64,000 bases of DNA from Prevotellaceae bacterium. Its GTDB lineage: Bacteria > Bacteroidota > Bacteroidia > Bacteroidales > Paludibacteraceae. Position numbers and translations under genes: made by a program. Shown here in pieces: positions 7,913 to 49,941 of the stretch (the first letter of the stretch is position 1; every line of letters begins with the position of its first letter). The DNA lies in NCBI GenBank assembly GCA_020636675.1, contig JACJXK010000010.1:8583-72582 (forward strand). Reading direction: 5' to 3'. The notes beneath the pieces are model-generated. The model did not search any database. It was not told where the DNA came from and saw nothing but the letters and a program-made list of their open reading frames with translations.

Positions 7913-8881
7913 TTAAACCGTCATATTGTAATAACTTAATTTATTCTTGTATTTCTCTATAATCATCAACGGAATATTGAAAAGAGGAACATTGTAGTTT
8001 ATGCCAGTTTTTATACGCTTTCCTTTTAGCCAAAGATTTCCGTCAAACGATTGACAGATATTACTTTCAAGTAAATGAACAATATCAATGTATGATAACC
8101 CGGTATAACAAGCAAATAGAAATATATCCTTTACATGTTCTAGTCTTAAACAATCAAATTGTTTTCCAATGATTGCCTCTAATTCTTTTTCGGTCAAATA
8201 TCCTTTATCCACTTTCTTGACTGAAATTATATAACCTGTGAACGGATGACGTTGAATTATGCCTGTATTATGAGCAAATGTTACTATTTTTTTGAGGTAT
8301 TGAATCATCTTTGCCGCTACATTATGGCTTAATCTGCATTCGGTTTTTAAGAATACCTCGTAATCATTTACAAACATCAGATTCATATCTCGTAACAGCA
8401 TATCCGCCATTTTATAGCGATATTTTATAAATTCGCTTACACGTTGTCGTGCCAATAGGTATTTTTTATAAGTAGAATCTGATCTATCTACACCTACCAG
8501 TTTCTTTAAATCTGTGTTATGTTTATCAAAAAGAGTAAGGATAGTTTCATAGGAATCATCTATGCCTAGAAAAGAGTTTTTCAGAATGTCGGAAGTAACC
8601 CCCTTGCCGCCTGCTAATAAAGTATGGTAATGAGATTTTATTTTGGCTTTAATTCCATCCAATATATCATTGATCTGCCCAACTTCTTTGTTTCGTCCGA
8701 CAGCTTTTCCGGCCGAAACATTCCACAAATCAGGATCAATTTCAAGTTTTGTGCTAAACTGTGCCACTTCTCCATTAACTGTTATCCGAGCAATAATAGG
8801 CATATTGCCATTTGCTTTTTGCGCGTTCCTTTTTAGAAAAAACGATACGCTAAATGTACTTTTTGTTGTCTTCATTTTCAT
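7913..8881 (-). pseudogene. Tyrosine site-specific integrase, 3'-truncated
   Basis: The 322-aa ORF has a Bacteroidetes integrase N-terminal arm-binding and SAM-like region and the start of the catalytic domain (FLFACYTGLSYIDIVHL). It ends (..KYKNKLSYYNMTV*) before the expected H-x-x-R and catalytic Tyr segment. Its stop sits 18 bp from the Crp gene stop. Confidence 0.7.
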
Positions 8882-12476: not shown

Positions 12477-14081
12477 CTACCCAATGAGAGTGAACATGAC
12501 ACGTTCTGATTTGACTTTCTGGTTTTTCTGGGCATAAGGCCTCACTCTGCCGTTCAGAATCCATCCCATCAGATTGTCTATGATCGTTGTCTTTGGACTT
12601 CCGTTTATGTCGTTGACTAAATAGACCTGGTAGTTGCGGTTGTTTTCCAAACATAGCTCCCACTCCTGTTTGGTGAGGAAGAATGTTTTGCTGGAGTCGA
12701 CTTTGCCTTTGCATGCGATGTAGTACTCTATGTTCTCGTTGTCGAACATAATCTCGAAGTCATAGCCCTTTTCCTGCTTTTCCGTCTTGTTTGTCCAGTT
12801 GACACGGTCGGGATATTTTTTTTGAAGCAGCTGGTAGACAATCTCCTCGCTTTTTTGCGAGGTGCGGTGAATCTTCTCCTTGTCTTCTAATAGAATGACC
12901 TCCTCATCAATCTGCTTAAGTTTGCTAATCTCCTCCTTGTCTGCCTCCTGAACAGACAGAAGTGCTTTTATCTTGTTTTCTTTCTCCGTCACTAGAGATT
13001 CCAACTTTTCGATTTCCGCTTGCGCGTTTCTGTTGATCTCCTTCAACTCTTCTACCTTCTTCAGTGATTCTTTCCCTGCATTCCTCAACTTCTCAATCTC
13101 CTCGTTCTTCTCTTTCTCTTTGTTTAAAAAATCATGGATGGTTTTTATGTTTTCGTTGAGGATGTTGCTTATCTCCGTGTTTTTTGCCTCAATTTGCTTG
13201 ATGGCGTCTGTCTTGTCATCTTCTTTGTTTTCGGATGCGAATAGTTTGGAGTCGATGGGCGCGTTGTCTTCAAAAATGACGACCGTTTTTTTCTGTGTCG
13301 GTTGGGTCATTTCTGCCTTTGGTGTGATTCCGACTTTTGGAGCCTCTGTCTTGATTGCTGTTTGGATGGGTTCCGTGTCCTTTCCCTTCTTTTCTGCCGC
13401 TTCTGTTGTTTGTGTGGATGTTTGCTCCTGTTTTACCTCGGTGGCAAACTCTTCTTTTTTCTCTGGGGTGCTTTCTCCGTTTGTTTTCTCCGCATTAGCA
13501 ACGGAATTCAGAGACTCTTTTCCGTTCAGAATGTCGATGAGAGGTTGTAATGTGGTCTTTGTTGCAAGACGGTCTCCGCTGTTTTCCAACGCAAGATTGC
13601 AAAATACGCCATTGCTTATGTTCGCCACTTTTTGAGCCATCTTCTCTTCAAATCCGGTTAGTCCGAGCCCGATGACGTTTACTTGTATTGATCCGTCTTT
13701 TTTTGATTTCTCCACCTCAAATTCGTAGTTCCCTCCGTCTGTTTCCATTCCGGCTGTGACTAGGATGATTCGTTTCTTATCAGCATCACGTCCTTTCATT
13801 GCGGCTAATGATTTTTGCACTGTGTAGCCGATAGGGGAGCCTCCGTTAGGAATGGGCAGTTTTTCTATCTTTTCGGAAAAATCGTGTTCGTTTGTCAGCC
13901 CCAGATCTATGGAGTTGATGACAATCGGTGACTTTACGATGGAAAGAAATGTCCTCAACCCTATTGGATCCGAGAAATTTAGAAGAGGAATGATTTCGTC
14001 TTTTATGGCTTTCTGCGCGATAGGGAGCTTCTTGCTCATGTTGTCTGAAATGTCAATCAGAAAATCGGTAATTGTACTCAT
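12477..14081 (-). CDS. vWA-like domain / long E,K-rich coiled coil / C-terminal DUF3883-like (PD-(D/E)xK-fold) protein
   Basis: The N-terminus has a vWA-like pattern (FLIDISDNM...RIILVTAGMETDGG). The middle of about 220 aa is E/K/T-rich. The C-terminus (GYDFEIMF...EYYIACKGK...TFFLTKQEWE...NYQVYLV) resembles DUF3883. ATG 14081 (MSTITDF) is preferred; the ORF is open to 14156. Confidence 0.7.
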   Translation of the reverse strand: MSTITDFLIDISDNMSKKLPIAQKAIKDEIIPLLNFSDPIGLRTFLSIVKSPIVINSIDLGLTNEHDFSEKIEKLPIPNGGSPIGYTVQKSLAAMKGRDADKKRIILVTAGMETDGGNYEFEVEKSKKDGSIQVNVIGLGLTGFEEKMAQKVANISNGVFCNLALENSGDRLATKTTLQPLIDILNGKESLNSVANAEKTNGESTPEKKEEFATEVKQEQTSTQTTEAAEKKGKDTEPIQTAIKTEAPKVGITPKAEMTQPTQKKTVVIFEDNAPIDSKLFASENKEDDKTDAIKQIEAKNTEISNILNENIKTIHDFLNKEKEKNEEIEKLRNAGKESLKKVEELKEINRNAQAEIEKLESLVTEKENKIKALLSVQEADKEEISKLKQIDEEVILLEDKEKIHRTSQKSEEIVYQLLQKKYPDRVNWTNKTEKQEKGYDFEIMFDNENIEYYIACKGKVDSSKTFFLTKQEWELCLENNRNYQVYLVNDINGSPKTTIIDNLMGWILNGRVRPYAQKNQKVKSERVMFTLIG

Positions 14082-14241
14082 GCTGTTTGCTTTTTTTGTG
14101 TTTTTTACGTTTAAGGTTGTTTTTTCGCCTCTTAAAAACGTTTTAAAATTACACAAAAAGGGTAGATTGTCAACGCAAACTTGAAGAAGAAAAACATGTT
14201 ATGCAATACAAAAGGGAGGCTTTTCTGATTCCCGAGTTCTG

Positions 14242-26344: not shown

Positions 26345-26520
26345 TATTTTGGCCGTTTGGAAAGGTGCCATCCGGTCAGAAGACGGGAACAATTACCAAA
26401 TCTCCCGGCGTACGTTTTCAGGACGGGAGGTCGAGCCGTGTTTCAAAATGGAAATGTATAGGTTTGTCCGTAGCATACTTTTTTCTCTAAAGAATGCTTT
26501 TCTTGCAAAGAAAGTTTGTA

Positions 26521-26567
26521 AATTATCATATTGATATTATCTTTGTGATAATATCAATATGATAATT
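26521..26567. promoter_or_regulatory. Perfect 21-bp inverted repeat with 5-bp spacer immediately upstream of the radical-SAM/NrtR fusion gene (candidate operator)
   Basis: aattatcatattgatattatc (26521-26541), then tttgt, then gataatatcaatatgataatt (26547-26567). The arms are exact reverse complements. The repeat ends 15 bp before ATG 26582. Confidence 0.6.
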
Positions 26568-26581
26568 TATTGAATAAGCCT

Positions 26582-28744
26582 ATGAAATGTATTGAAACGT
26601 ATGAGACGGGGTTGCTTTATCACCATTATGCTAATACGGCATATCCTTTGACTCCTCAATCTTTTAAAGAGTACAGATTGGATGGAGATGAGAAAATTGA
26701 CAAGTTTGTTCGTACAGAATGGAAAAATGTGGACGAATTGTCGCTTTATATTCATGTTCCGTTCTGTAAGTCTCGATGCAAATTCTGTGAATATGTTGTA
26801 CTTGATACCTGTGATGCGCAGTTAGAGGATGAGTATGTTGATTTGCTCCTGAAGGAGATGTCCATGTATGCTGAGATTCTTAAGGGAAAGAGGATTGTGG
26901 GATATGATTTAGGAGGAGGGACTCCAGCCAAATTGTCTGTTAGAAATCTGAAACGTCTTACAGACGCAGTTACATCTCTATTTTCATTTGCCGATAATGT
27001 GGTTTTCAGTGTGGAAACGACACCTCTTGTGGCGGCACAAGAACCGGAGAAAATAAAAGCTCTTTTTGATATGGGGTATGCTCGCATCAGTATGGGAATT
27101 CAGACGGTTTCGGAAAAGTTGCTAGAGGAATTGGGCCGAGATGGATCTACTTCGTTGTATGAGAAGGCTATGCGTTCTATAAGAGATGCTGGTTACGAGC
27201 GTTTTAATATTGATCTGATGTATGGCTTTTTGCATCAGACGGATGTCGATTTCAAAAATACGTTGAAATACGCAATCGGACTGAATCCTGAGTATATTAC
27301 GCTATATAGGAACCGATATAAAGGAACTAAGTTGGAATCCGAGGCAGGTGGCGTTTCAATTTACAAGGCACTCTACCAATATCGGATTGCGTACCGTTTG
27401 TTGACGGAGAATGGGTATGAGGCCAACGTAGGTAAGAACACGTTTAGTAGGGTCCCTGAAGATTATGGTACGAGTGATTATCTGACCAAACGCGTTATAT
27501 ATGGTACCCCTTATGTGGGGATGGGGCTCGGTGCTCAGTCGTTCGGAATGAACTATTTGGCTTATAATTTGGGAGCTGCGGAAAAACGCATGGAGCGTTA
27601 TAAGTCTGCAATTTTGGCAGGTAAACTGCCATTGCAGGATATTTATGATTTGCCGAAGGAGGAATCTATAGCTAAGATGGTTTCGGTGGCTTTCTATTTC
27701 GCGTTTGTTGATCTTAATGCTTTCAAAAATCGGTTTGGTGTCGATTTTGAATCTTATTTTGCCGAAGAGATTGCTTTCGTAATCGAGAATGGATTGATGG
27801 AGAAAAAAGATGATAGACTATATTTGACGGAACGGGGAGCTGATTTTATCAATGGTGTGATTCCATTGTTTTACTCGAAGCGCTCGAAGAAAGAACTAAA
27901 TTATATTTTTGAGAAGAGACATACGGATGGAAAGTCGGATGAAGAATTGTTTCTTGAGTCGTATGATATAAAGAATTATGAACAAGTGTCTGCGACTGTT
28001 GATGTCGCTGCTTTTGCTTTGCAGCCGCAAAAGACGGAGCAATATCGGCAAGATGATGTGCAGACGTTGTCTTTGTTGTTGGTGAAGCGTGGAGAACATC
28101 CGTATATGAATAAGTGGGCATTGCCGGGTGGCTTCTTAAGAGGTGACGAGAATATTAAGGATTGTGCTTATCGTGAAATTAGAGAGGAAACTGGTGTCGT
28201 CCCGAATGCTTTGATGCAGATAGGTACATTCAGTGAGCCTAATAGGGATCCGCGTGGTAGAATCATCTCCAATGCCTTTGTCTCAATCATGACAGATACT
28301 GTGACTGCCAGAGGCGGAGATGACGCCATAGATGCGAGGTGGTTTGATGTTGATTTTATAAGGAAGGATGGTAGGTTGTTATTGACACTTTCCTCTGGCG
28401 ATCTGAAACTGACGGCAACTTTGTATGAAACGCAGCATAAATTTGGCCAGTTTGAGTTCGAAATAGAGAAGAGCGACGGTTTGGCTTTCGACCATGCTAA
28501 TATTATTGCTACTGCGCTATCTGTGCTTCAGGTTAATATTGTCGATTTCGATATGATTTTCGATTTTATGCCGGAGAAGTTTACACTAGCGAGCTTGCAG
28601 AGAGTGCAGGAAACTATCTTGAATATTTCGATCCTGCCCGCAAATTTCAGGAGAAAGGCTTCTGCTTATATAGAGGAGACAAATGAATATACAGAAGGCT
28701 CCGGACATCGGCCGGCACAACTTTTCCGAAAGAAAATGAAATAA
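26582..28744 (+). CDS. Fusion protein: HemN/HemW-like radical SAM domain + Nudix hydrolase domain + NrtR-type winged-helix domain
   Basis: The radical SAM motif is CKSRCKFC and the GGGTP motif reads YDLGGGTPAKL. The Nudix box is intact (GGFLRGDENIKDCAYREIREETGV). The C-terminus (LAFDHANIIATAL...MPEKFTLASLQRVQETIL...NFRRK...GHRPAQLF) matches the NrtR wHTH pattern. Confidence 0.85.
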   Translation: MKCIETYETGLLYHHYANTAYPLTPQSFKEYRLDGDEKIDKFVRTEWKNVDELSLYIHVPFCKSRCKFCEYVVLDTCDAQLEDEYVDLLLKEMSMYAEILKGKRIVGYDLGGGTPAKLSVRNLKRLTDAVTSLFSFADNVVFSVETTPLVAAQEPEKIKALFDMGYARISMGIQTVSEKLLEELGRDGSTSLYEKAMRSIRDAGYERFNIDLMYGFLHQTDVDFKNTLKYAIGLNPEYITLYRNRYKGTKLESEAGGVSIYKALYQYRIAYRLLTENGYEANVGKNTFSRVPEDYGTSDYLTKRVIYGTPYVGMGLGAQSFGMNYLAYNLGAAEKRMERYKSAILAGKLPLQDIYDLPKEESIAKMVSVAFYFAFVDLNAFKNRFGVDFESYFAEEIAFVIENGLMEKKDDRLYLTERGADFINGVIPLFYSKRSKKELNYIFEKRHTDGKSDEELFLESYDIKNYEQVSATVDVAAFALQPQKTEQYRQDDVQTLSLLLVKRGEHPYMNKWALPGGFLRGDENIKDCAYREIREETGVVPNALMQIGTFSEPNRDPRGRIISNAFVSIMTDTVTARGGDDAIDARWFDVDFIRKDGRLLLTLSSGDLKLTATLYETQHKFGQFEFEIEKSDGLAFDHANIIATALSVLQVNIVDFDMIFDFMPEKFTLASLQRVQETILNISILPANFRRKASAYIEETNEYTEGSGHRPAQLFRKKMK

Positions 28745-28822
28745 CGGGTTCATGAGAAGAGGGATGTGTCTTGCCTATTCTATTAATGCTATGTAGGATT
28801 TTTTGACGATTACCAAAAGAGG

Positions 28823-28856
28823 AAAAGCCAATCGGAATAGATTCCGGTTGGCTTTT
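28823..28856. terminator. Bidirectional hairpin between convergent genes
   Basis: aaaagccaatcgga pairs with tccggttggctttt (one mismatch), with A and T runs on either side. Confidence 0.55.
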
Positions 28857-28890
28857 TGTAAGTAACTGAAAAATGAAAAAATGTGTTTTT

Positions 28891-29184
28891 TTAAATAGCC
28901 TGTTCTATGTTCCACACAAAGGCTCTTAGTCCTAGTTGCTCTGTTTCCAAATCCATCTCATGGAGGATTTTTAGGATAGAGTCAACTTTGTCGTCTTCTA
29001 CCACACTGATGATAGCTGAGCACATAGATGGCCACGCATGGCTTCCGTAATGAGGGTCTCCCGTTTTGGATCCTCTGCCTTGAACCTGCTCCAAATAAGA
29101 GAATCCACGGCAGTTCATCTTCTCAAGTGTGCTTATTATTCTTTCGTAATAAGCTTGGTCGAATGTTATTAATATTGATTTCAT
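28891..29184 (-). CDS. Small PG0541-type / P-II-fold-like transporter-associated protein
   Basis: A 97-aa product from ATG 29184 (MKSILITFDQAYYERIISTLEKMNCRGFSYLEQVQGRG...). It lies directly downstream of the RND permease gene. The longer ORF (to 29418) overlaps the permease and is rejected. Confidence 0.6.
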   Translation of the reverse strand: MKSILITFDQAYYERIISTLEKMNCRGFSYLEQVQGRGSKTGDPHYGSHAWPSMCSAIISVVEDDKVDSILKILHEMDLETEQLGLRAFVWNIEQAI

Positions 29185-29273
29185 TGTAATCTTGTATTTG
29201 GACAAGTGTGGATCCGGAAGACTGCACATCGGAAAATCTCTTCCGATGGCAGTCTTTGGATTCTTCCACGTTG

Positions 29274-32200
29274 TTATGAGTTTAACTTTGCTAGTTTCTT
29301 TCGTGTATTCTTGACGCCGGTACCTGCAAATATGCAGTAGAGTACAGGAACCAATATCAACGTAAGGATGGTGGATATGGTCAGACCTCCGATAACGGAG
29401 ATACCCATTGGACTCCACATCTCCGAACCTTCGCCCGTTCCGATGGCCATTGGCACCATACCAAGGATGGTGGTTAGCGTGGTCATAACGACCGGACGCA
29501 GACGTGATTTTCCTCCCATCACCACGGAGCTGATGATGGACATTCCTCTCTCTCTGTTCAATGATATGTAGTCAATCAGCACAATACCATTCTTTACTAC
29601 GATACCGATCAACAAGATGCCTCCTAATAGGGACATTACGTTCAATGTCTGGTTGGTGAGGAACAGTGCGAGAATGATACCGGACAAAGCAAATGGAATG
29701 GAGAACATGATGATGAACGGATATGTCAGTGATTCGAACTGGGCCGCCATTACGATGAACACCAAGATGATGATCAGGATGGCTAATGTTCCTAAGTCGC
29801 GGAAGGAGTCTTGCTGGTCTTCGTAAGATCCGGAAAGCTCTACGTTGATGCCATAAGGAATGTCCATGTTGGCAATCTTCTTTTGTGACTCGGCAACCAC
29901 ATCGCCCAATGCTGCGCCTGAAATTACGGCAGTCACCGTATTGACACGTTCGCGGTCTTTTCGTTGGATGTTAGGAGGTGTGCTTCGTTCCACCACTTTT
30001 CCTAAATCCTTTACTCGTATGCCTTGACCTGCTGCGTTGTATATCAGAATGTTCTCGATGTCTTCGATAGACTGCCTATTCTCTGGGTCATACATGACTT
30101 TTATCTTGTATTCGTCGCCATCTTCGCGGTAATAAGAGGCAGTGGCTCCGCTGATGCGGTTTCTTAGATAATTGGCGGCTCCGGTGGTGTTGAGCCCGTG
30201 AAGTGCCAATTTCTCTCGGTCGAAATCTACCTGATATTCCGGTTGGTAGTCGGATCGGCTAATGCGGACTTCCGAACAGCCATTGACGGTCAACAACTCC
30301 TTCTTCAAATCTTGAGCCACTTTGTCTGTCTCGGTGAAGTCGTAACCATAGATTTCGAAGTCGATGGTTGATTGGCCTCCCATTACGGAGTTACCACCTC
30401 CTAGCATTACCTGGTATTTCTTCAATTCGGGATATTGGTCCAGATCTTTACGCATCATGTCGCATATCTCAGCAAGACTACTTTCTCGGTCTTTTGGATC
30501 GCTCAGCCTGATGTTGTAATTGACGATATGTGAGCCATTGTCGCTCATGGAGGCCCAAATGTTGTCGGAGCTTGCTTGTCCGGCAGTGTAACTGATTACA
30601 TTTATCTCCGGATATTTTCTCACCCATTCGTCGTTTATCTTCTTTGCAAGGGCCTTACTCACCTCTGCTCTCGTTCCGATAGGAAGTTCGTAGGTGACCT
30701 TTATTCTGGAGTTGTCTTGTGTTGGGAAAAACTCGGAACCGATGTATTTTCCTAAGAACATACTGGCGACAAAGAAAACGATACAGCTTAAAAATACGGT
30801 GGCTCTATGCCTTACTGCCCAGTTGAGCATTTTTGAGTAGGTGCTGTCGAATTTGTCCAAGGCCTTCTCTACTGGACCGTAAATCGTAGTGAATATCTTG
30901 CTTTGTTTCCTCTGTAGTCTCAGCAGTTGCGAACATAGCATCGGAGTGAGGGTCAGGGCGCATATTGTGGATATGACCATGATGATACAAACCATCCAAC
31001 CTAACTCCTTGAACAGAACACCCGTCATGCCGGTAACCAGTGTGAGTGGGAAGAATACGGCGATCAATGTGAGCGTTGAGGCTACTACGGATACGGCCAC
31101 CTCGTTGGTTCCGTGTATGGCTGCCTGTTTAGGCTCGCTGCCTCGTTCTATGTGTGTCGTCACATTCTCCAATACCACGATGGCGTCATCCACTACCATA
31201 CCGATGGCGATGGAAAGGGACGACAAGGAGATGATGTTCAGTGAACTTCCTGTCGCTGCCAAATAGATAAAGGATGCGATTAATGACAGCGGGATGGTGA
31301 TGAGCACGATGACAGTGGCTCTCCATCTTCCTAAGAATAGGAATATGACCAGAGACACGAATATCATGGCGTCACGGATCGTGTCTGCCAAACTCTGGAT
31401 GGTGTTTCGGATGTTGTCCGATGTGTCGACGATGATACCTAGCTTGACGTCGCTTGGCAAAGACTTTTGTAACTTAGGCAGTGCCTTCATTACCTTGTCC
31501 GAAATGTCGACGGAGTTGGCTCCTGATTGCTTTTGGATGACAATCATGGCTCCTTGTTCGCCGTTGTTGTAGGTCTCTTGCGCACGTTCTTCCACTGAAT
31601 CGTCAATTTTGGCCACGTCGCTTAGGTAGATGTTTGCTCCGCTTTTGCTACCTACAACTATCTTTGCCATCTCCTTCGCATCTTTAAATTCTCCTTCCAC
31701 ACGGAGAGAGTAGGTCTGCGTACCGATGTCGAAAGTACCTCCGGGAACGTTCCTGTTCTCGGCTCCGATGATGGAGGAGATGCTCTCGACGGTGAGGTTG
31801 TAGGCCTCTAGTTTGACGGGGTTCACATATACGTGGATCTCGCGTTCTGGAGCTCCGGAAATGGAGACGGTACCCACACCCTTGATACGGGCAAGAGGGT
31901 TGACTACATTGTCGTCCAGAATCTTGTATAGTGCGGGCAAGCTCTCTTTTGCTTTGACAGACAGTAGAACCACGGGAATCATGTCCGTACTGAACTTGAA
32001 TAGTATGGGCTTCTCTGCTCCGTCTGGCAAAGTGGTGACCATGTCCAGTTTGTCTCGGACGTCATTGGTCTTGACGTCTATGTCATTGCCGTACTCAAAC
32101 TCCAATGTGATGATGGAGTAGTTTTCGTAAGATTTTGAAGTGATGTGTTTCAAGTCACTTACGGAGTTCAACGTATTCTCGAGCGGACGAGTGATGTTAT

Positions 32201-32381
32201 TCTCTATGTCCGATGCGCTTGCACCTGCGTATGAGGTCATCACCATGATGGTGTTTGACTCAATGTCCGGATACAAGTCGATAGGTAATTTTGATAATGA
32301 AAACAGACCCATAATCACCACTGCAAGAAAGCAGAGGGATGTCATGACTGGCCGTTTTACTGCACCTTCATATAAACTCAT
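29274..32381 (-). CDS. RND (HAE1/AcrB-family) efflux transporter permease
   Basis: 1,035 aa with 12-TM/large-loop architecture and typical AcrB-type segments (LSSLSIAIGMVVDDAIVVLEN, MSLLGGILLIGIVVKNGIVLID). Confidence 0.95.
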   Translation of the reverse strand: MSLYEGAVKRPVMTSLCFLAVVIMGLFSLSKLPIDLYPDIESNTIMVMTSYAGASASDIENNITRPLENTLNSVSDLKHITSKSYENYSIITLEFEYGNDIDVKTNDVRDKLDMVTTLPDGAEKPILFKFSTDMIPVVLLSVKAKESLPALYKILDDNVVNPLARIKGVGTVSISGAPEREIHVYVNPVKLEAYNLTVESISSIIGAENRNVPGGTFDIGTQTYSLRVEGEFKDAKEMAKIVVGSKSGANIYLSDVAKIDDSVEERAQETYNNGEQGAMIVIQKQSGANSVDISDKVMKALPKLQKSLPSDVKLGIIVDTSDNIRNTIQSLADTIRDAMIFVSLVIFLFLGRWRATVIVLITIPLSLIASFIYLAATGSSLNIISLSSLSIAIGMVVDDAIVVLENVTTHIERGSEPKQAAIHGTNEVAVSVVASTLTLIAVFFPLTLVTGMTGVLFKELGWMVCIIMVISTICALTLTPMLCSQLLRLQRKQSKIFTTIYGPVEKALDKFDSTYSKMLNWAVRHRATVFLSCIVFFVASMFLGKYIGSEFFPTQDNSRIKVTYELPIGTRAEVSKALAKKINDEWVRKYPEINVISYTAGQASSDNIWASMSDNGSHIVNYNIRLSDPKDRESSLAEICDMMRKDLDQYPELKKYQVMLGGGNSVMGGQSTIDFEIYGYDFTETDKVAQDLKKELLTVNGCSEVRISRSDYQPEYQVDFDREKLALHGLNTTGAANYLRNRISGATASYYREDGDEYKIKVMYDPENRQSIEDIENILIYNAAGQGIRVKDLGKVVERSTPPNIQRKDRERVNTVTAVISGAALGDVVAESQKKIANMDIPYGINVELSGSYEDQQDSFRDLGTLAILIIILVFIVMAAQFESLTYPFIIMFSIPFALSGIILALFLTNQTLNVMSLLGGILLIGIVVKNGIVLIDYISLNRERGMSIISSVVMGGKSRLRPVVMTTLTTILGMVPMAIGTGEGSEMWSPMGISVIGGLTISTILTLILVPVLYCIFAGTGVKNTRKKLAKLNS

Positions 32382-36474: not shown

Positions 36475-36505
36475 TTTGTTTTATTAAATTATGTTCATAA
36501 TTTTG
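36475..36505 (+). promoter_or_regulatory. Candidate Bacteroidetes sigma-A promoter for the giant gene
   Basis: TTTG (36475-36478) is followed 19 bp later by TAATTTTG (36498-36505), matching the -33 TTTG / -7 TAnnTTTG consensus. This would give a leader of about 285 nt. Confidence 0.3.
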
Positions 36506-36795
36506 CCAAACCCATGCTTTAGTGATAGATATATGGAAGCGTGGCCGGGGAGTATAGGAACTAATTACAAATTATATATAAGGAAGAAGACACTTCCTCT
36601 TTTTTGAAATTTAATTGATTGCATTTCGGGTTGGTCCCTTTATGGATAGGGGGAAGCCTTTTAGTTTATGCCGAATTGATTTTACTTATTTGTCTATTTT
36701 AAAGAGAGGTGTCTTTGGCTGAAATTTTACCCTTTTATAAGGAGGGAGTGTATGTTATGGAAAGAAATTTATTACATAGGGAAATACGGGTTGAT

Positions 36796-39700
36796 ATGAA
36801 AATCACAACAACATTATGGAAGAGGGGCGTGTTGTCGTTCCTTGCATTGCTGGCTGGTGTGGCGATGCTGGAGGCGCAGACTATCAGTGCGGATGAAACG
36901 TCTGCGTGTGAAAACGACCCGGTGGTATTGAAGGCCGAAGGTTTCGCCTCTTCGGTGAAAGCTATTGATTGGCTTAGAAGTACGGACGGAACGAACTGGA
37001 CTACAGTGAGGTCTACCTCCGGAAATGTGGGGACTTTCGTGGATGATATGCCTGGAATGGCTGTCCGTTATAAGGCGAAAGACCAAAACTCGGCAACAAT
37101 AACCAATACGGTCACTGTGACGTTGAGTACTAATTGTGCCGCAATTTGCCATACCACATCCACCGGTGATTATTTTTCCGGTACAGACTTCGATCCTGAA
37201 TCCGGAGTGACAACACCAACTCCTGCAATTCCAAGTGAGGTGGTCAATTATTTTGAAGAGAATGACATTACTCTTATTTCTCAGAATTCAACTTATGAAG
37301 TTACTACAGATTTGAGTTCCCAGTTTGGTTCGTATGTTCCTTCTCTGGATGAAGGTGGTAATAGTAACTATTATTATATGTATACGAATCCTCCGAGTAG
37401 CTCCCAACCTTTTGAATACCGGTTTAAATGTTCCACGTATGTGGGTAAGCATTACCGGTATACCATGCGTTTTTATTTGTTGAAGAAGAGCGATAATTGC
37501 GGAGGTTCTGCAAAAATAAAATTGGAGACCGGACATGGTAACCAGACTACGGATAGGGCTACTCTCGATATCTATGACGATGCCGCAGATGTGAAGATGA
37601 AATCGTTGGATATTACTGAGACTTTTGGATCTACAGATCTCAATATAGGAGGTTCTGATTATGCCAATAAGCTGTTGCGTGTGGAAATCACCTATTATGG
37701 TTATTTTCCGGATGACAAATACGATCCGAATAGTGGCACATATAATGGATTGCAGTATTTTACACTGAAACCTCTATTCCAACAGTTTGATGGCTGCTTT
37801 GCTTTGGCCATCGACTATATCTCTGCGGAGATTGAGTCTGTTTGTATGAACCGAGGTGCTGTCTGTGTGGGTGAGAGTGCGGTTGTCAATGCGGCTGGTT
37901 TCCCTAAAAATGCAAAATATACATGGGAAGTGGAAAATGGAGGTGTATGGGAACCTGTTGTTATCGGCGGAATCACTATGGATAGAACCGATTTGCAAAG
38001 TGTCAATATTCCAGTCACAACGGTGGGAAAAAAGATATATAGGGTTAGGGATGCAAATAGTACTGTATCTATTGAATTTACAGTGACAGGTAAGGATTGT
38101 GATCCGGTTCAGCCTACCGATATTCTTGGCCCGGAATCTTCTTGTGCACCTGTTAATAATTTGAAGTTCTCGGTGTCGCCGGTAGATGCCAACAGCTTGG
38201 TCCGTTACTCTTGGGAGATGATAACACCTAGCGGAAACGTTTTGACAAATAATGTCTCGTTTACAGGTGGTTCCCTTAATCCTGCAGGTAGAGGAGATAC
38301 GATTTATGTCACTTTGAATGGACAGGCAGAGGAGGGTGAGTATACGCTGAAGGTGCAGCCTATCATCAAGAGAAATGGAGTGGATGAATTGGTGGGGGCT
38401 CCGATAACGCGGACATTTAGGCTACATCAGACTCCTAGCGTCTCTCTGAAACTTTCCGGTTACGCCGACGGAGTGAGTGAGGGCGACAAGAAACTTTGTC
38501 CTTCCGATAAGAATCAACGCATAGTGGCTGTCGCTGATGTGATGCCACCGTCCTATTCTGACTATATTTATACTTGGGAACATGCTACTGCCATAGCAAA
38601 TACGGACAGTGCGGTAGTTAATCTACCGACAGCATCCTCTTGTGATGGCTCGATGAAGTCGTTGGCTATTGGAGTTACGGTCAGTATCAAGGACATTGGC
38701 TGTCCTGCGACGAAATCCAATACCTATACTTTGGAAGACGTTGTAGCTCCAACTGTCGACTGTGGGTCGTTGACCTCTGCCCAATTGAATTATGTGTTGG
38801 GTGCAACTCAGAAGGAAGTGACAGTCGACCTCCCTATTCCGAATTTCGGCGCCGGTTGTGATTCTAATCCTTCCTTAGATATTGATGTGTTGTTTTCCGG
38901 TAAGGATGGAACTTCTTTCGTGAAGAATTTCCATATAGAAAAGAAGAATTTGGCAACTGCCGACAAGAAGGTGACTCTTCCTGCCGGTACGGCAGCCGTG
39001 ACTTATACGGTGACGGATGGTTGTGGGAAGACTGCTTCCTGTACGGCAACGATTACGGTGGTAGACAATACCGCTCCAAAAATTGATTGTGACAAAATAA
39101 AATCATATACAGCCCATTTGTCTAAACAGGAAGCCTGTGTGGCTGTGCCCGGTTATGCTCCTACGGAGTTGCCTATGTTGACGGCTCCTGTCTTGACGGA
39201 CATGAACGGAGTGGATGGCAACATTACAGGAATATATATGGGACGCAGGGAAAACTGTGTGTCTGAACCTGCCGCATCGCCATCTTTGTTCACGGAGTCA
39301 ATCGGACTGAATGCCAGCTATAAGTTGGGAACATCTTATATCCTTTGGGCTTTCACGGATAAGTCTGGTAATACCTCTTACTGCTTGTCGTCTGTTTCTG
39401 TGATTGATGACAAAGAGCCTACGCTAAATTGTCCGGCTGATGCCGATTTAGGAGATATTGCCGCTAATGTGGGCACCTGTTCCTTGTCTTTGGACTCTTT
39501 GTTGGTCAAGATGCCGCAAGGCCAAAAGCCTTCGGCTACCGATAACTGTTCGTCTAGCAGCAGCATCACCGCAAAGATGTATTACCGTAAGGTGGGCGAC
39601 GCTACTTGGATTGAGATTGTCGACCCTACGGCACTCCTCTTTGATAAAGGCGTGCAATATGAGTTGGATTGGCGTTTCTACAAGAAAACAACTAGTGCGT

Positions 39701-42700
39701 CGGTAGACAAAACGGTATATGTGGATTGTCCTCAGACATTCAAGGTCGTAGATAAGGAGGCTCCGGACTTCGACTGCGAATCGTTGCAGGATATCCGTGT
39801 CATGGCAAACAGTTATCGTCTATGGCATAGGGACAATGGAGGATATTGGTCTACGGAGTATGATGACTTCGCTTCCGGATCCGGATCAAGCTCGGAATCG
39901 GATTATGTCTTCTCCCTGAAGCCATATTTTGATGACAAGACACTTCAGATGCATGGGGATGTGACCGACAATTGTGGCGGTGGTGTAAAGGTGAAGATAG
40001 AGATAGATAATGTGGACGGAGAGAAAACCGTTATCGCATCTCTCTCTGCTTTCCAAAAATATGAGTTCCAAATCGGAGCTTCCACTGTTTACTATACCTT
40101 CTCTGACGATGCCGATCCTGCCAACTCGAAGACTTGTGAACAGACGGTTGTTGTCTCTTCCCAAGATGCTCCGATTCCTGATTGTGGCGCATTGCACGAT
40201 ACCGTGCTTTATGCCAATGCAGACTGCGAGGCAACCATGCCGATAGCTTTGTCGCAGATTCCGACGGCTACCATCAAATACAATAAGGAGGTGAAATACG
40301 TAAATGATGAGACATCTGGTTGTAATGCCATCTATGATTATGATCGGTTGAGTTATCGTAAATCTCTTACCGGAGAACGAACAATGCTTGGTTATCCTTA
40401 TGCTGTAAAATTAATAAGAGAAGATGGAACATCTGATCTGTGCGAAAATATATATACAGATGCAGATACGGTACAAAGCAAGTTGGTTCAACACCGAAAG
40501 TACTGGCCGATAGAAACAATTTGTAAAACAGATGTTGTAAGCACATTGAAGATAAAACGGACGAATTTTGCCTCCGTACCGACATGCGCCACTGCTCCGT
40601 TCCATTTGGGAACCAATAAGTTGGTTTGGTATTTCGAAAATGCGGATGGATTGAATGATAGTTGTACCACCGTCATTGTGGTGAAAGACACGACAGCTCC
40701 GTCTGTTATCTGTGGCGATTGGGAAAAGAACGGTACTTTCTATGCGGACGAAGAGTGTAAGGTGCCGGCTTCTGAGGTGGCTCTGAAAAAGCCAACAGCA
40801 ACAGATCTTCATGCAACGGACAACTGTACGGTATCTTCAGACTTTGATATATCTTGGAATAGGACGTTTAATGGCACTACTACAACAGATTTGTCCGCAC
40901 CGTTTGAGGTTGGAATGACAACCATAAAATGGATTGTCAAAGATGAATCGGGCAACGCCTCGTTCTGCTACCAAGAGATTGAGGTGTTAGATACTATTGG
41001 TCCTAAGTTTGATTGTAGCACATTAGTAGACTTGAAGGTTTCTGCCGATGGTGATTGTGAGGCGAAATCCTCTGCGGTTATTGCTGCCGGACTGGTTACT
41101 CCGGAGACGGCGGCCGACGATGCTTGTTCGCCTACCGGCGCAACAATAAAAGGCGTTGGAGAACGTAGTGACGGAAAAGATATATTTACCGATCCATATC
41201 CAAAGGGAACGACCACAATCACATGGACATTCACAGATGGAGTCGGCAATAAAACGGTTTGTAAACAAAATGTCATAGTGACCGATGATACGGATCCTCT
41301 CTTTGTTGATTGTGATGCAATGACGGATGTTGTGGTAAAACTAAATCCGGAGGAGTGCTCTGCTTCGCTCGACAAGGTGAAGGCGTCTCTTGGTTCTCAT
41401 ACGGCAGAGGATAACTGTACGGGAACGATTGATGGTGTCCCTATGTTGTTACTGCCGGACGGATCGTTGACGGCATTGCCTTCTGCATTTAAGAAAGATA
41501 CGACATTTGTTATCGTTTGGGTGTTTGAAGATGAGAGTGGCAATAAGACGGAGTGTAGCCAAAAATTGGTGATTAAGGATGTTACTCCTCCAGATCCGTC
41601 CGGTTCTTGCCCGGATCCGACGAAGACGGTGACTGCGACCGTTGAATGTAGTGTAAGTTACAGCGACTTAGGTCTTTCCCCAATCACCATAGATGATCCT
41701 TGCGACGGACCTCTTGTTTCTGAAATGGTCGGAAAGATTAAGCAACATGACGGTTCCGTCATCACTTATAGAGGGGAAGCAGAATTGAATGCCGCCACTT
41801 ATCCTGTTGGAACACATACATTCTATTGGATATTCACAGACAAAGCCGGACTAAAAGATACTTGCGAGATGCGGCTGACGGTGACAGATGGCATCCTTCC
41901 TGTTGTGGAAGACTGTGACGTCGCTAAGGATATTACAGTGACAGTTTCCGATGATGAGTGTGCCATCCATCCGGAAGATCTGAAAGGTTTGATAGTTCAT
42001 CCAAAAGCATACGACGAATGTGATGATGAAGCCGCCGGAATAGGAAAGGTTTTCTTGGATCCTATCATTGAACGTTGGTTTGATGGCTATCGTCTGGACG
42101 ATGCCGAAGGTAAACCGATAGATTGGGATTCTCAGGATTTTCCAAAGGGGACTACTACTATAAAATGGATATTTAAAGATAAGGCCGGCAATGAGGTCAC
42201 TTGTGAAAAACGTGTGACGGTAGAGGATCATACGGCTCCTTATTTCGATTGCTCGACACTTGATCCGGATACGCTTCGTCCTGTTGCGTTGGCCGGCCGT
42301 TGTGACGTGCAGTTCAATGAAATCACTTTCAATGACTATTATGCCGAGGATAAGTGTACGACAGACTCGATAAAAGGTGTCTTGACACTGAATGGATCGA
42401 CGTTCTTGCCTACTGATTACACAATGGAGGTTGGCAAAATTTACACATTGCAGTGGGTCTTTGTGGATGAGGACGGAAACAAGAAAACTTGTCCGCAATG
42501 GATAGTGCCAAGCCATAGCATGCCGATCAACTTTGACTGCTCTACATTGCAGACGGTTGAAAAATTGGCAACGGAAGGCGAATGCACCATCTCTTCTACA
42601 GACTTGGCATTGCCTGTCCCTGAAACAAGGGATACTTGTACGAAAGAGCAGATTGTGGCAACGGGTTCTCGTAGCGACGGACTGGCAATGACGGCCGACT

Positions 42701-45700
42701 ACCCGACGGGAACGACCATTGTGACGTGGACTTTTGTGAGTCCATACAATCTGGATTCTGTCAAGACTTGCGATCAGACAGTTTCTGTTTTAGGCAACAA
42801 GAAGTTTGACATAGATTGTGAGACTTTGATCTCCGTGGCCCGCGATACAATTAGCGGTTGTGGCACTAGCGATATTGGTGCTGATATTGAGGCTCCGGTA
42901 GTGGACGACCCTTGTGCCAATCCTGATTCCTCTTATTTCAAGAGAGTTGGTGTGGGTACACGTAGTGATGCGTTGGCATTGACAGATCCTTATCCGTTGG
43001 GTGTTACAACTATCAAATGGATATTTACGGACTTCACCGGCTCGGTAAAGGACTCTTGTAACCAAGATGTGGTTGTGAAGACGGATCTTGAAGTTGACTT
43101 TGATTGTGATTCGCTTACAAAAGATACTATCAAGGTGGCTGTGAAACCTGGCGAATGTACGGTTTCTTCTGATAAGTTGAACTTGCATTTCCCTAAGGCG
43201 GCCAATCCTTGTACCGGTGATTCTATAGAAGGTGTCCCTTCCCGTCAGGGAGGATTGTCAATGTCCGATCCTTATCATACGGGTATGACGAAGATCACGT
43301 GGACATTCACGGACACAACGGGTATTTTGGCAAAACCAGTTTCTACTTGTTTCCAATGGGTGCAGGTGGGTGATGTTAATAAAGTGCCGGTAGATTGTGA
43401 TAATATGCCGGATACGTTGATAAAACTGCCGGAGAATGATTGTGAGATATTGTTCAAGGAGTTGAACTTTAATATACCTCCGGTTTATGACTTGTGTACG
43501 GGAGTTCATATCGACTCCGTTGTAACCCGTACTTCGGGTGCGGCGTTGGATGATCCGTTTAAGGTGGGCAGGGATACCATCTATTGGGATTATTCGTTCG
43601 AAGGTCAAGATTTCAGATGTACGCAGATTATTGCGGTGAAAGATAGCATGGCTCCTGAATTCGATTGTTCTACGTTGGATACAATCCGCTTGGCTTCGGT
43701 TCCCGGTAAGTGCTATACCGATTTGGACAGTGTCTTGGCAGAGTTTCCTAATCCACTGCCAACGGCAACGGAGGTCTGTACGGGACAGAAGATCGAAGGT
43801 AAATATGCTCAGGCTGATGGTTCTCCATTGCCTTCTAAAATAGCTGTGGGTGATACGCTCTTTGTCTATTGGACATTTATGGATACGGCGATCAATCTTG
43901 TTCCGAAGATTTGTGAACAACCGGTGATTGTGATTGGAGACTTGGAGCCGGAGGTTAATTGTGACGAGATAATGCCTATCAATATTTATATAGAGAGTGG
44001 ATGTGATACCACACTGAAGCCAATAGATATTGTCACTCCGTTCGCATTGGACGCTTGTACAAAGGATACGGTTTATGGCGTGGCTACCCGTTCGGATGGG
44101 AATGAATTGTTCTCCAAATATCCGGTAGGCGCTACGACGATAACATGGAAGTTCATAAGTCCATACTCTACGGCTGTCGCCTCTTGCGAACAAGAGGTCC
44201 ATGTCTATACGGAGAGCCAGCTGATATTTGATTGTGAGACATACTCCAATGATACGGTCAAGGTGAAAGTTCCGGAAGGGGAGTGCTTTGTGGATGTGAC
44301 ATTGGAAACTCCATTTGCGTTGAATCCTTGTCCTGACAACACGGATCAAGATACTATTTGGGGTGAGCCTAAGCGTAATGATAATAAACTTATCTCCGAT
44401 CCATTCCCTACCGGAATAACAAAGGTGGAATGGACGTTCACCGACCATTCCGGTACGTTGCGTGATAGTATAATCATGTGTACTAAGGTTGTTCAAGTAG
44501 GTGACGTGAATGAAATTCCGGTGAAGTGCGAAAATATTCCGGATACGGTGTTCGTGCTAGAACCGAATGATTGTGACATCAACTGGAGCGAGATGAACTT
44601 CAATGTCCCTGATGTGAAGGATTTGTGTACAGGAGCGTTGGTTACGCCAACTTTTGATCGTACATCTGGCATCGATATGTCGCTTCCTTTCAAGGTGGGT
44701 GTGGATACGGTAAAATGGCATTATGACTTCTCGGGACAGACATATACCTGCTCGCAGGTGATAAAGGTGAAGGATAGCATGGAGCCAGAATTTGATTGTT
44801 CTACGTTGGATACGATAAGGATGAAGTCTTTGGCGGGTGAGTGTTATACTACACTGGATAGTCTGAAACTTGCGTTGGGTAATCCGGAGGCGTTGGATAA
44901 ATGTAGTGATAAGAAGATTCCGGGAGTGCCGACCATGATGGACGGATCGGCTTTGCCTTCGCAGATAGCAGTGGGCGATACGTTGATCGTGAAGTGGACC
45001 TTCTTTGATGATACAATAAATACTGTCGCTAAGGTTTGCGAACAGGCTGTTCTCGTAATTGGTGACGGAGAACCGAAATTCGAATGTTCTTCTTTGAAGG
45101 ATACGGTCCTCTATTTGCAGTTGGTTGATGAGTGCGAACTGCCAGCAGGTAGGTTGACGCTGAATGTTCCGGTAGCAAAAGACTCCTGCACGGATGCGGA
45201 TGTTCCGGGTGTGGCCACCCGTTTGGATGGCGCCAATCTGACCGACGTTTACCCTAAGGGTACTACGGAGGTAAGTTGGACATTTATCAGTCCATATAGC
45301 ACTGCAACCAGAACATGTTCTCAAAATGTGATTGTAAAAGATACGTTCCCTCCTGTGCTCTCTTGTGAGACACTGAAGGATACCATAAAGGTGAGGATTA
45401 CCACCTCCTCTGCTTCCGACAATTCGGTGACTTCTGCTGAGGCGGAGGCTGCAGGTCTGGTTGCTCCTTCGGTGACCGACCCTTGTGACGGAAACATCAC
45501 GGCGGTTGGTTCTCGTGACGATGGTAAAACCATGCAGGATGTTTATCCATTAGGCTCTACCAATATAGTGTGGACCTATACGGACAAATCCGGCAATTCG
45601 GATACTTGCCGTCAGGTGGTTCTGGTGGAAGACTGGATTTTGGATACGTTGTATTGTCCTCAGGATTTGGAAGGAAAGACATTCTCTTGTGTGACCGGAG

Positions 45701-48520: not shown

Positions 48521-49941
48521 ATGAGATGGAACGACTCTTTGGTCTCGAATAGTAACCGTTATCAGTGGTTTGTGTTGGCCAATGTCATGTTTGGCACATT
48601 CATGGCAGTGCTGGATGCAACGGTGGTTAATGTGGCAGTGCCTGATATGATGAAGGCTTTTGGTGTGGGTATGTCTGAGATGGAATGGGTGGTAAGTGGT
48701 TATATGTTGGCATTTGCCTTGGTTTTGCCAGCCTCATCTTGGTTTGCTGACAGGTATGGCAATAAACTCCTATATTTTGTGGGCTTGTTTATGTTCACTT
48801 TGGGCTCTTTTTTGTGCTCGTTGTCCGTGAGTGAGCATATGCTTGTCGCTTCTCGTATTGTGGAGGGGATGGGTGCCGGCGTTATACAGCCGGTAGGTCT
48901 GACTATAGTTACAAGGGCATTTCCTCCTGAGAAAAGGGGGGTGGCGCTTGGCTTTTGGGGTGTCGCAATTGCGGCTTCCGTCTCTTTTGGCCCTATCGTG
49001 GGTGGATTTTTAGTGTATTAATTTGGATGGAAGTATATATTCTTGGTCAACGTTCCTATTGGAATCTTGGCTATGGTTCTGACTTGGTTGCTCCAAAAGG
49101 AGTTCTCTTTCTCAAAGAAGACGAGGTTCGATTATTTGGGTTTTATTCTTATTTCTGTCTCGCTTGTATCTTTGTTGTATGCGCTCGATTATGTGAATAG
49201 GTCGACCAATCTGCTAGGATGGTCATCTCCCGTTGTCTCTGTGTTGATGCTTGTGTTTGTCCTGTTTCTTGGCCTCTTTGTCGCCTTTTCTCTTAAAGCA
49301 AAAAGTCCGTTGTTGAATTTACGTCTGTTTGCCAATCGCAATTTTATGGTCGGGAATCTTATCTCTTTTGTTTTTGGCTTTGCCGTTTTTGGTACTAATC
49401 TTGTCCTTCCTTTGTATCTGCAGAATGTGTTAGGCTATACGGCCCTCCAGTCGGGGTTGGTGTTTCTGCCGGTTGGGTTTGTCCAAGGTTTGCTCTCTCC
49501 CTTTGCCGGAAAGTTGACGGACCGGTTGGATGCTCGCTATTTTGTTGTGGTCGGGTTGCTCCTGTTGGCTTTGAGTTTTGAATTATGTTCCTCATTTTCT
49601 CTTCGAACAACGCATGATTCGGTGATGCTTCCTTTGTATATCAGAGGGGTGGGGATGGGCCTTTTGTTCTCTCCTATGACAACGTTGTCGTTCGTAGGCT
49701 TAAATAGGTTGAAAATGGGTGATGCCTCTGGTATTTTGAATACGATGCGTCAGGTAGGAGGCTCTTTTGGAGTGGCGGTTTTAGGCGGTCTGTTGTCCGA
49801 ACCATATCATGCAACTTGAATGCGGTGTCGTCGGAAAGGTTGTTGCAGTACGTTATTTCTGTTGATTTCTCATTCAAAATAGCTGTCTATCTTATGGTTG
49901 CCGGTGTTGTCTTGTCATTCTTCTTTACACGTAATAAGTAA
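48521..49941 (+). pseudogene. DHA2 (EmrB/QacA-type) MFS transporter, in-frame TAA plus a 3' frameshift
   Basis: ORFs 48521..49021 and 49043..49819 are in the same frame, separated by TAA at 49019-49021 within the conserved GPIVGGFLVY*FGWKYIFLVNVPIG segment. The last TM helix (..KIAVYLMVAGVVLSFFFTRNK*) reads in another frame from about 49819. Confidence 0.8.

Follow-up and report, generated by a model that had tools for sequence, protein, structure and literature searches.

A HemN-like radical SAM protein fused to an NrtR-type regulator in a Paludibacteraceae genome: predicted autoregulation and a probable link to NAD salvage

We describe here a gene from a Paludibacteraceae bacterium (NCBI GenBank assembly GCA_020636675.1, contig JACJXK010000010.1) in which a radical S-adenosylmethionine (SAM) protein resembling HemN is joined in one reading frame to a complete regulator of the NrtR family. 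The gene occupies positions 26582..28744 of the 64 kb stretch of DNA that was analysed, hereafter the window. The architecture of its product, the conservation of the motifs, the conservation and position of the operator element in front of it and the gene neighbourhoods of its homologues were observed directly. Together they lead us to propose, with a probability of roughly 0.7, that it encodes an autoregulated NrtR-enzyme fusion with a link to nicotinamide adenine dinucleotide (NAD) metabolism, a proposal in which DNA binding and the activities of the protein are deduced by comparison with known relatives. Regulators of the NrtR family and HemN-like enzymes are each well known, and the original prediction, made from this sequence, was aware of no described fusion of NrtR to a radical SAM enzyme. 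In agreement with it, we found in the open-access literature no paper on a fusion of NrtR or Nudix to a radical SAM protein, nor one on a HemN-like protein in NAD salvage. In the databases the fusion is already present many times, labelled unspecifically, for example as "radical SAM protein", "NUDIX domain-containing protein" or "coproporphyrinogen-3 oxidase".

The gene is read on the plus strand without stop or frameshift from 26570 (TTG) or 26582 (ATG) to 28744, stop codon included. Since the homologues open with the pattern M-x-C-x-E-V/I-Y-E-T-G, we take the ATG at 26582 as the start, which gives a protein of 720 amino acids with four Pfam domains, each above its gathering score. An N-terminal extension analogous to the N-terminal region of HemN (residues 1-50, 26582..26731, with GLLYHHYANTAYPLTP as the signature most distinctive of the family) precedes the radical SAM core (residues 56-230, 26747..27271; PF04055, E=9.9e-18, with a match to HemN 1OLT). 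The core carries the [4Fe-4S] motif CxxxCxxC in the form CKSRCKFC (residues 62-69 with C62, C66 and C69, 26765..26788) and the SAM-binding motif GGGTP (residues 111-115, 26912..26926). A HemN_C domain follows (residues 376-421, 27707..27844; PF06969, E=1.4e-8). The Nudix domain (residues 498-593, 28073..28360; PF00293, E=8e-16, with matches to 2FML, 3GZ5/3GZ8 and NadM-Nudix) contains an intact Nudix box, G-x5-E-x7-REIREETGV (residues 517-539, 28130..28198), and directly after this domain sits the NrtR winged helix (residues 660-716, 28559..28729; PF21906, E=3.8e-16, 59.4 bits against a cut-off of 27). All these features lie on the plus strand. The description of the gene as a radical SAM protein fused to a complete Nudix-NrtR regulator is thus borne out by Pfam, NCBIfam and PDB sequence matches and by a search of the PDB with an AlphaFold model. 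The motifs CKSRCKFC and GGGTP and the Nudix box, on which that description had rested, were all recovered by pattern search, and the profile search that had been proposed as a check on the winged helix supports it.

The N-terminal half (residues 1-445) had been called HemN/HemW-like. It does resemble HemN, but it is not an orthologue of either protein. In a sequence search of the PDB, residues 51-431 align with E. coli HemN (1OLT, E=7.6e-27, 24% identity), and the class C methyltransferase NocN (9P2U) matches the core only (residues 53-258, E=1.3e-18). In the AlphaFold model, which was built on an alignment of 52 sequences (pLDDT 82, pTM 0.72), the best structural match of this half is again 1OLT, with a TM score of 0.77 by Foldseek against the PDB. 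The fold is shared with HemN inclusive of the HemN_C domain and of the N-terminal extension, in which G10, H14, Y16 and N18-L23 are invariant in the 52 sequences and within which the hemN and STM4012 models begin to align, at residues 19 and 38, respectively. The cysteines C62, C66 and C69, the GGGTP motif and the RxSxGxQ motif are kept and are likewise invariant. The protein differs from HemN in that the fourth cysteine of the latter (CX3CX2CXC) is replaced by a tyrosine, Y71, in 52 of 52 members (CyfCgC of HemN aligns with CkfCeY), in the low identity, in a context of NAD salvage instead of heme, and in a score far below the cut-off of the hemN model (TIGR00538, residues 19-433 aligned, 185.7 bits against 324.95). 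From HemW it is set apart by the retained HemN-like N-terminal extension and by the motif HNxxYW, conserved in HemW (PMC10114718), for which a pattern search of the fusion protein gave no match; the HemW model TIGR00539 yields 146.1 bits against a cut-off of 205.4. The best NCBIfam model is STM4012 (NF006067) with 195.3 bits against 380, and the ChuW/HutW model scores 139 bits against 400. By these sequence comparisons no named family includes an orthologue of the radical SAM half. It shares a superfamily branch with the other HemN-like proteins, among them the heme chaperone HemW, the class C radical SAM methyltransferases and cyclopropanases (NocN, NosN, TbtI, ChuW/HutW and C10P) and the STM4012 family; no fusion to Nudix or NrtR and no link with NAD genes is described for any of them. 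A 2022 review of the HemN-like proteins mentions uncharacterised bacterial subclades, and neither "Nudix" nor "fusion" occurs in its text (PMC10114718). Mean pairwise identity is 74-78% in the radical SAM half and 41-61% in the NrtR half, with 56% for the Nudix domain and 61% for the winged helix. The stronger conservation of the radical SAM half is what would be expected of a working enzyme. The N-terminal half is therefore best described, from its sequence, as an apparently active HemN-like radical SAM enzyme of an uncharacterised clade.

The C-terminal half compares closely with characterised regulators. In the PDB sequence search the E. faecalis NrtR (EF2700, 2FML) aligns over its full extent with residues 457-718 (E=2e-28), further matches are to BtAraR and to the S. 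oneidensis NrtR (SO1979, 3GZ5/3GZ6), and the winged helix aligns with that of NadQ (7Q91). Foldseek returns TM scores of 0.71 for 2FML, 0.71-0.77 for BtAraR and 0.69 for the complex of the S. oneidensis protein with DNA (3GZ6). With these NrtRs the fusion protein has in common the Nudix domain followed by a C-terminal winged helix and a palindromic operator over the promoter, and its homologues control pncA, prs, pncB and nadE in the manner of clostridial NrtR regulons (PMC2330246). It differs from them in the additional N-terminal radical SAM enzyme of 450 residues, in an intact Nudix signature, which most NrtRs have lost, and in its operator: a single 21-bp site with a GT-N7-AC core in NrtR, overlapping tandem copies of TTATC-N5-GATAA in front of a solitary gene here. 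NrtR is reported to dissociate from DNA in response to ADP-ribose. In most NrtRs the Nudix signature has degenerated and there is no activity, whereas NuhA, with its signature intact, is active as an ADP-ribose pyrophosphatase; the correlation of intact signature with activity was drawn from NuhA versus Slr1690 (PMC2330246). In the family described here G517, E523, R531, E532 and E536 are invariant and E535 is found in 51 of 52 sequences. Because the signature is intact, by the NuhA criterion the Nudix module should be active, and we consider it likely to be an ADP-ribose pyrophosphatase. The arrangement has some precedent. With NadM-Nudix (2QJO/2QJT), a bifunctional nicotinamide mononucleotide adenylyltransferase/ADP-ribose pyrophosphatase, and with the cyanobacterial NuhA our protein shares a Nudix domain of the ADP-ribose pyrophosphatase type with intact signature, fused in our case to what may be another NAD-pathway module, although this partner is of the radical SAM class and our protein also has a domain for DNA binding. 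The enterobacterial NadR, a helix-turn-helix repressor fused to nicotinamide mononucleotide adenylyltransferase and ribosylnicotinamide kinase (PMC2330246), follows the same logic of joining a regulator of NAD metabolism to still active enzymes of that pathway, with unrelated folds and domain order and with NAD as co-repressor, where the fusion protein has a Nudix hydrolase and a radical SAM module.

The fusion is not unique to this genome. The identical 720-residue protein is found on seven contigs from four repositories (NCBI, JGI, ENA and Logan), and in a search of 5.8 billion proteins Radical_SAM and NUDIX are fused in all of the best 120 clusters (57-70% identity). The NrtR winged helix is present in 88 of them and absent from 32, whose proteins (636-680 amino acids) end just past the Nudix domain. 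When clustered at 50% identity, fused representatives are few and unfused orthologues (430-480 amino acids, 35-53% identity) are many. The named members belong to Oscillospiraceae, Clostridia, Ruminococcus, Acutalibacteraceae and Acetivibrio. The survey of domain architectures that had been suggested with the original prediction thus uncovers a widespread, mainly clostridial family of radical SAM-Nudix fusions with or without winged helix, and the radical SAM-NrtR family as a whole occurs in fused, split, unfused and pseudo-enzyme forms. Since the only Bacteroidota members seen form the window protein's own 90% cluster, horizontal acquisition of the gene from Clostridia is likely, the direction being deduced from this distribution. 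Three proteins encoded in the window have cluster mates that are named as Paludibacteraceae (Bacteroidales). The base-composition profile of the window shows no GC anomaly that would mark the gene as foreign.

Immediately upstream of the gene lies a perfect inverted repeat (26519..26569) with arms of 23 nucleotides (26519-26541 and 26547-26569, 100% complementary) around a spacer of 5, which we predict to be a composite operator of the NrtR type. The palindrome reported in the original prediction is indeed perfect, but its arms are 23 and not 21 nucleotides long, and its 3' end is 12 and not 15 nucleotides upstream of the ATG. A search for copies of the half-site found the 21-mer only at the two arms of the palindrome in 64 kb (0 expected). 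A related element, G-W-TATTATC-N5-GATAATA-W-C, recurs upstream of the homologues; in Clostridia it sits between a TTGACA -35 element and an extended -10 element (TGnTATTAT) and overlaps the latter. A 23-mer matrix was built from the homologue sites and applied leave-one-out to loci of 5-64 kb, with L013, L097, L006, L103, L105 and L107 kept outside the training set throughout. In the window and in 16 homologous loci (L003, L004, L005, L006, L010, L012, L013, L014, L017, L094, L097, L098 and L099, and likewise L103, L105 and L107, which encode pseudo-enzymes) the best matrix match of the whole locus is located 36-90 bp upstream of the first family gene or operon gene, and in most homologous loci a second, overlapping site is found exactly 14 bp away. 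The operator is kept in every sampled locus with a closely related NrtR; with the distant NrtRs of L015 (about 31% identity) and L100 the matrix did not find an operator of this type.

In the window three overlapping 23-bp sites follow each other at a step of 14 bp: site 1 at 26519..26541 (TAAATTATC-ATATT-GATATTATC, core TTATC-N5-GATAT, 18.9 bits), the central site 2 at 26533..26555 (GATATTATC-TTTGT-GATAATATC, 24.5 bits, the top match in 64 kb) and site 3 at 26547..26569 (GATAATATC-AATAT-GATAATTTA, 18.9 bits). The highest score in 30 shuffled windows was 16.5 bits. Adjacent sites share GATAnTATC half-sites, and it is for this reason that the whole forms a perfect 51-bp palindrome. Site 2 is the sole TTATC-N5-GATAA without mismatch in the window. 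The operator overlies a candidate sigma-AB promoter of the Bacteroidetes, for which the consensus is TTTG-N19-TAnnTTTG (quoted in PMC7366714). By match to this consensus, the putative -33 box TTTG lies at 26515..26518 and the putative -7 box TATCTTTG (TAnnTTTG) at 26538..26545, in the centre of the palindrome, both on the plus strand. The whole pattern is matched exactly at 26515-26545, one of two exact matches in 64 kb against 0.48 expected, and the TTTGT spacer of site 2 provides the TTTG of the -7 box. Transcription would be expected to start at about 26549-26553, within the right arm, so that the left arm would remain untranscribed and the full hairpin would not be part of the mRNA. We read the element as a DNA operator that would occlude the -7 box and the start site, both of which are spanned by site 2. 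The idea of autoregulation raised in the original prediction thereby receives strong comparative support from 16 other loci in which the operator precedes the gene or operon of the family, and further support from the superposition of operator and promoter consensus in the window. Some matches were discarded. The other operator-core matches in the window (7 against 3.2 expected, including those at 8782, 15826, 38496 and 42339) are in or next to unrelated genes and are attributed to chance, the next matrix match, at 30970 (17.4 bits), falls inside an RND pump gene, and a sigma-70 reading of the palindrome (TTATCA-N18-GATAAT) was set aside because Bacteroidetes lack promoters of the sigma-70 type (PMC7366714). 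Downstream of the gene, a hairpin flanked by A and T runs (28822..28857; predicted RNA fold -23.5 kcal/mol, z=-7.35) has the features of a bidirectional intrinsic terminator and separates the gene from convergent P-II-like and RND pump genes. With its own promoter and this terminator the gene would be monocistronic.

The link to NAD comes from the neighbourhoods of the homologues. A scan of genome contigs with the window protein alone yielded only 9 loci, the genome of the window not among them; an alignment-based metagenome scan, in which the radical SAM motif served as pattern, was dominated by generic HemN and HemW, and only L014-L017 were useful. Among about 16 distinct loci sampled, NAD-salvage genes are in the same operon at 9, and an NrtR (fused or adjacent) or the operator is present at all except L101, which has only a weak operator-like match. 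In a Clostridia metagenome-assembled genome (L094/L095/L096) and in Acutalibacteraceae (L005) the full-length fusion comes first and is followed by methyltransferase-pncA-prs-pncB-nadE, where the methyltransferase is of class I and prs is phosphoribosyl-pyrophosphate-synthetase-like. In Ruminococcus and relatives (L013, L097, L002, L004 and L003) a stand-alone nrtR, whose product is about 53% identical to the C-terminal half of the window protein, is followed by a radical SAM-Nudix protein without winged helix and by pncB, with pncA or conserved unknown proteins of about 100 and 231 amino acids in between. An unfused radical SAM protein (444 amino acids, 50% identity) is encoded within the operon pncA-nadD-like-pncB-radical SAM-nadE-nrtR (L015:2231-7761), where its start overlaps the end of pncB and the nadD-like gene codes for a nucleotidyltransferase. 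A Ruminococcus sp. metagenome-assembled genome has at the head of pncA-prs-pncB-nadE a protein of 378 amino acids with HemN_C, Nudix and winged helix and without the radical SAM core (L006:5448-6584), and the operator of the family lies at -36/-50; the protein looks to be derived from the fusion by truncation. Finally, in L100:4511-8150 an nrtR is followed by a fusion of NADAR, an ADP-ribose-related module, with a HemN-like radical SAM protein (P0242, 34% identical to the N-terminal half of the window protein) and by a DegT/DnrJ/EryC1 aminotransferase; here, for a second time and independently, this radical SAM branch is paired with NrtR and with a domain related to ADP-ribose. Solitary genes with operator are found in L010, L098, L012, L099 and L014, in the pseudo-enzyme loci and in the window. 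The genes pncA, prs, pncB and nadE make up the classical clostridial NrtR regulon for the recycling of nicotinamide and ADP-ribose to NAD (PMC2330246). The connection with an NAD-related metabolite that the original prediction had suggested is thus supported by homologues that head, or sit inside, such operons.

Based on these findings we suggest the following model. By analogy with characterised NrtRs, the C-terminal half (residues 455-720, approximately) would dimerise and bind the TTATC-N5-GATAA sites, of which three overlap as the 51-bp palindrome. Since the central site spans the -7 box and the expected start, its occupancy would block RNA polymerase. ADP-ribose, a product of NAD consumption, would bind to the Nudix domain and, as judged by homology to NrtR, cause release of the DNA. 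Because the Nudix signature is intact, the domain would then probably cleave ADP-ribose into AMP and ribose-5-phosphate; the switch would thereby be reset and induction would be self-limiting. The radical SAM half, by association, may act on an NAD-related metabolite, be it ADP-ribose, a pyridine nucleotide or a base, by an oxidation of the HemN type or possibly by methyl or methylene transfer of class C. As a tentative proposal, for which we see somewhat less than even odds, the radical SAM module would catalyse a hitherto unrecognised step in the NAD/ADP-ribose metabolism of strict anaerobes. It is equally tentative that its substrate is ADP-ribose or a pyridine nucleotide or base and that it is coupled to an ADP-ribose hydrolase and to an ADP-ribose-sensing repressor that controls it. 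The Paludibacteraceae copy most likely reached its host by horizontal transfer from Clostridia, its operator having been adapted to a promoter of the Bacteroidetes type.

Several observations weigh against this model. The fusion protein falls below every NCBIfam equivalog cut-off. With NF050029, the model for the ADP-ribose-responsive repressor, it reaches 100.9 bits against a cut-off of 400; this model is, however, narrower than the NrtR family, as the stand-alone clostridial NrtR of L013 fails it too (111.6 bits). The operator core TTATC-N5-GATAA is not the GT-N7-AC core of most NrtR groups, from which several lineages are nevertheless known to diverge (PMC2330246). With three overlapping sites at a step of 14 bp, a simple filling of all of them by one dimer per 21 bp is impossible. 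The sample comprised only about 16 distinct loci, all picked for long contigs, and the scanned open reading frames of the 64 kb window include no NAD genes. A further reservation concerns catalysis. In P0140 (L103:7001-9142), P0143 and P0146 (L105:7001-9040), representatives of clusters at 50% identity, CxxxCxxC and GGGTP are destroyed in proteins that are otherwise full-length fusions, and P0146 has lost its Nudix box too. The winged helix and the upstream operator are kept in all three, and the genes are solitary like that of the window. These pseudo-enzymes and the L006 protein, which keep the regulator, indicate that the N-terminal domain can serve a non-catalytic role.

The last point leads to the main alternative, in which the radical SAM half serves chiefly for sensing or as a scaffold, and its cluster, SAM site or pocket reports redox state, SAM or a second ligand to NrtR. 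The protein could then be a two-input regulator, and a cofactor carrier of the HemW kind could also be imagined. It would explain why fusion and operator outlast the loss of both motifs in the three pseudo-enzymes (L103, L105-107), why L006 retains only HemN_C together with the NrtR that heads pncA-prs-pncB-nadE, and why the window gene stands alone as the pseudo-enzyme genes do. We consider it unlikely, though not far-fetched, because the window protein and its close relatives (52 of 52) keep all cluster and SAM motifs unchanged, conservation along the protein is highest in the radical SAM half, and the domain persists both without a DNA-binding domain (32 of the top 120 clusters) and unfused in an NAD operon (L015); for a HemW-like carrier, moreover, the HNxxYW motif is absent. 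The invariant motifs in the clade of the window protein and the forms that are unfused or lack the winged helix argue that both the ancestral and the present state are enzymatic. Far less credible is that the N-terminal half is an ordinary tetrapyrrole enzyme of the HemN, HemW or ChuW type, fused to NrtR without metabolic meaning. E. coli HemN is its best match in structure and sequence, the hemN model covers residues 19-433 and some members are publicly annotated as coproporphyrinogen oxidase, but the hemN, HemW and ChuW/HutW scores are far under their equivalog cut-offs, the fourth cysteine is a tyrosine throughout, HNxxYW is missing, and none of the approximately 16 loci has adjoining heme genes, whereas NAD-salvage genes or NrtR recur.

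A related doubt touches the ligand of the regulator. The host belongs to the Bacteroidales, NrtR-family proteins control arabinose and xylose genes in this phylum (PMC2330246), and BtAraR is a good structural match, so that the regulator half might be a pentose sensor of the Bacteroidetes AraR/XylR branch that does not respond to ADP-ribose. We regard this as highly improbable: sequence identity is 57-70% with the clostridial fusions and about 53% with the stand-alone NrtRs of pncB operons, PF21906 scores 59 bits against 15 bits, under cut-off, for AraR_C, the catalytic signature of Nudix is intact, and no pentose genes are nearby in the window. The palindrome, for its part, could in principle act as RNA, either as terminator of the upstream deacylase gene or as a hairpin or attenuator in the 5' leader, and it has indeed a stable predicted fold (-27.9 kcal/mol, z=-7.7). 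Its stem, however, consists almost entirely of A-U pairs without a U-tract after it, no Rfam family fits, homologous loci keep the sequence of the motif and its position at the promoter but not a long hairpin, and transcription, as judged by the promoter consensus, would begin within the right arm, all of which leaves this explanation very little weight. An assembly or sequencing artefact that joined two genes, finally, has in its favour nothing beyond the fact that the source is a metagenome-assembled genome. It is practically negligible in view of the continuous reading frame, of the identical protein on seven contigs in four repositories and of the fusion in 120 of 120 best clusters, 88 of them full-length with winged helix and from independent assemblies.

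If the radical SAM half is an enzyme of NAD or ADP-ribose metabolism, the implications are of some interest. The pathway of NAD salvage is regarded as completely mapped, and in the papers on NAD regulons and the reviews of HemN-like proteins that we searched no radical SAM enzyme is assigned to it; the possible gain would be a new enzyme in a pathway thought complete. Four independent associations connect an uncharacterised clade of HemN-like proteins with NrtR and pncA-prs-pncB-nadE, namely fusion to Nudix and winged helix, a Nudix-only fusion beside nrtR, an unfused form within the operon, and fusion to NADAR beside nrtR. By a Rosetta-stone argument this would point to a missing NAD/ADP-ribose reaction in gut and rumen anaerobes such as Oscillospiraceae, Ruminococcus and Paludibacteraceae. 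A single polypeptide would then sense, transform and clear the same metabolite pool and, after decay in some lineages, have become a pure sensor. The family offers a natural series from enzyme-regulator to pseudo-enzyme-regulator. Fusions between enzyme and repressor are few, with NadR, BirA and PutA as examples, and our protein would enlarge this short list. The window also seems to illustrate how an operator may be refitted from a sigma-70 -10 box to the -7 box of Bacteroidetes after a probable horizontal transfer.

Two further observations concern the homologues. The unknown proteins of about 100 and 231 amino acids flank the radical SAM-Nudix gene in the split operons (L013:7681-7980 and 9930-10625; L097:7662-7982 and 9946-10638; L004:3247-3978). 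These partners (231 and 99-106 amino acids) and the 252-residue methyltransferase gave no informative match in Pfam, NCBIfam or the PDB, and they are unrelated to the partners in L101 or L012. In P0152, P0153, P0156, P0191 and P0158 and in L101:451-3235 the HemN-like branch is fused to, or followed by, a second, small radical SAM/Fer4_12 domain, and P0158 is fused to a 2Fe-2S ferredoxin, a hint that these lineages may possess a dedicated partner or electron donor.

As to the remainder of the window, the gene is preceded by genes for a YbaK-type tRNA-editing protein, a phosphoglucomutase, NagB and a flavoprotein, and is followed by the convergent P-II-like gene and an RND pump operon. The P-II-like reading frame (28891-29418) overlaps the 3' end of an RND pump gene (29274-32381); as its P-II domain begins at residue 79, the true start is probably internal. 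Among the PADLOC defence models there was only a weak generic Nudix match (E=6e-5), with no link to defence. Two segments, a fragment of 235 amino acids that matches only positions 42-184 of the 513-position Prismane/hybrid-cluster profile (5470-6177) and an integrase-like reading frame with Arm-DNA-binding and SAM-like domains and no match to a catalytic domain (7913-8881), may be remnants of a mobile element. The region 36475-47778 contains a giant reading frame that begins at 36709 and encodes 3689 amino acids with HYR-domain repeats; the other exact match to TTTG-N19-TAnnTTTG (36475-36505) lies upstream of it. A protein of 559 amino acids combines von Willebrand A domains with NOV_C, the NO VEIN C-terminal domain (12477-14156), and another of 1433 amino acids shows, with two BcrAD/BadFG ATPase stretches and DUF2229, the architecture of a CoA-enzyme activase (54567-58868). 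At 48521-49819 two adjacent reading frames on the same strand (166 and 258 amino acids) correspond to the N- and C-terminal halves of one MFS transporter, the gene for which is either frameshifted or affected by a sequencing error.

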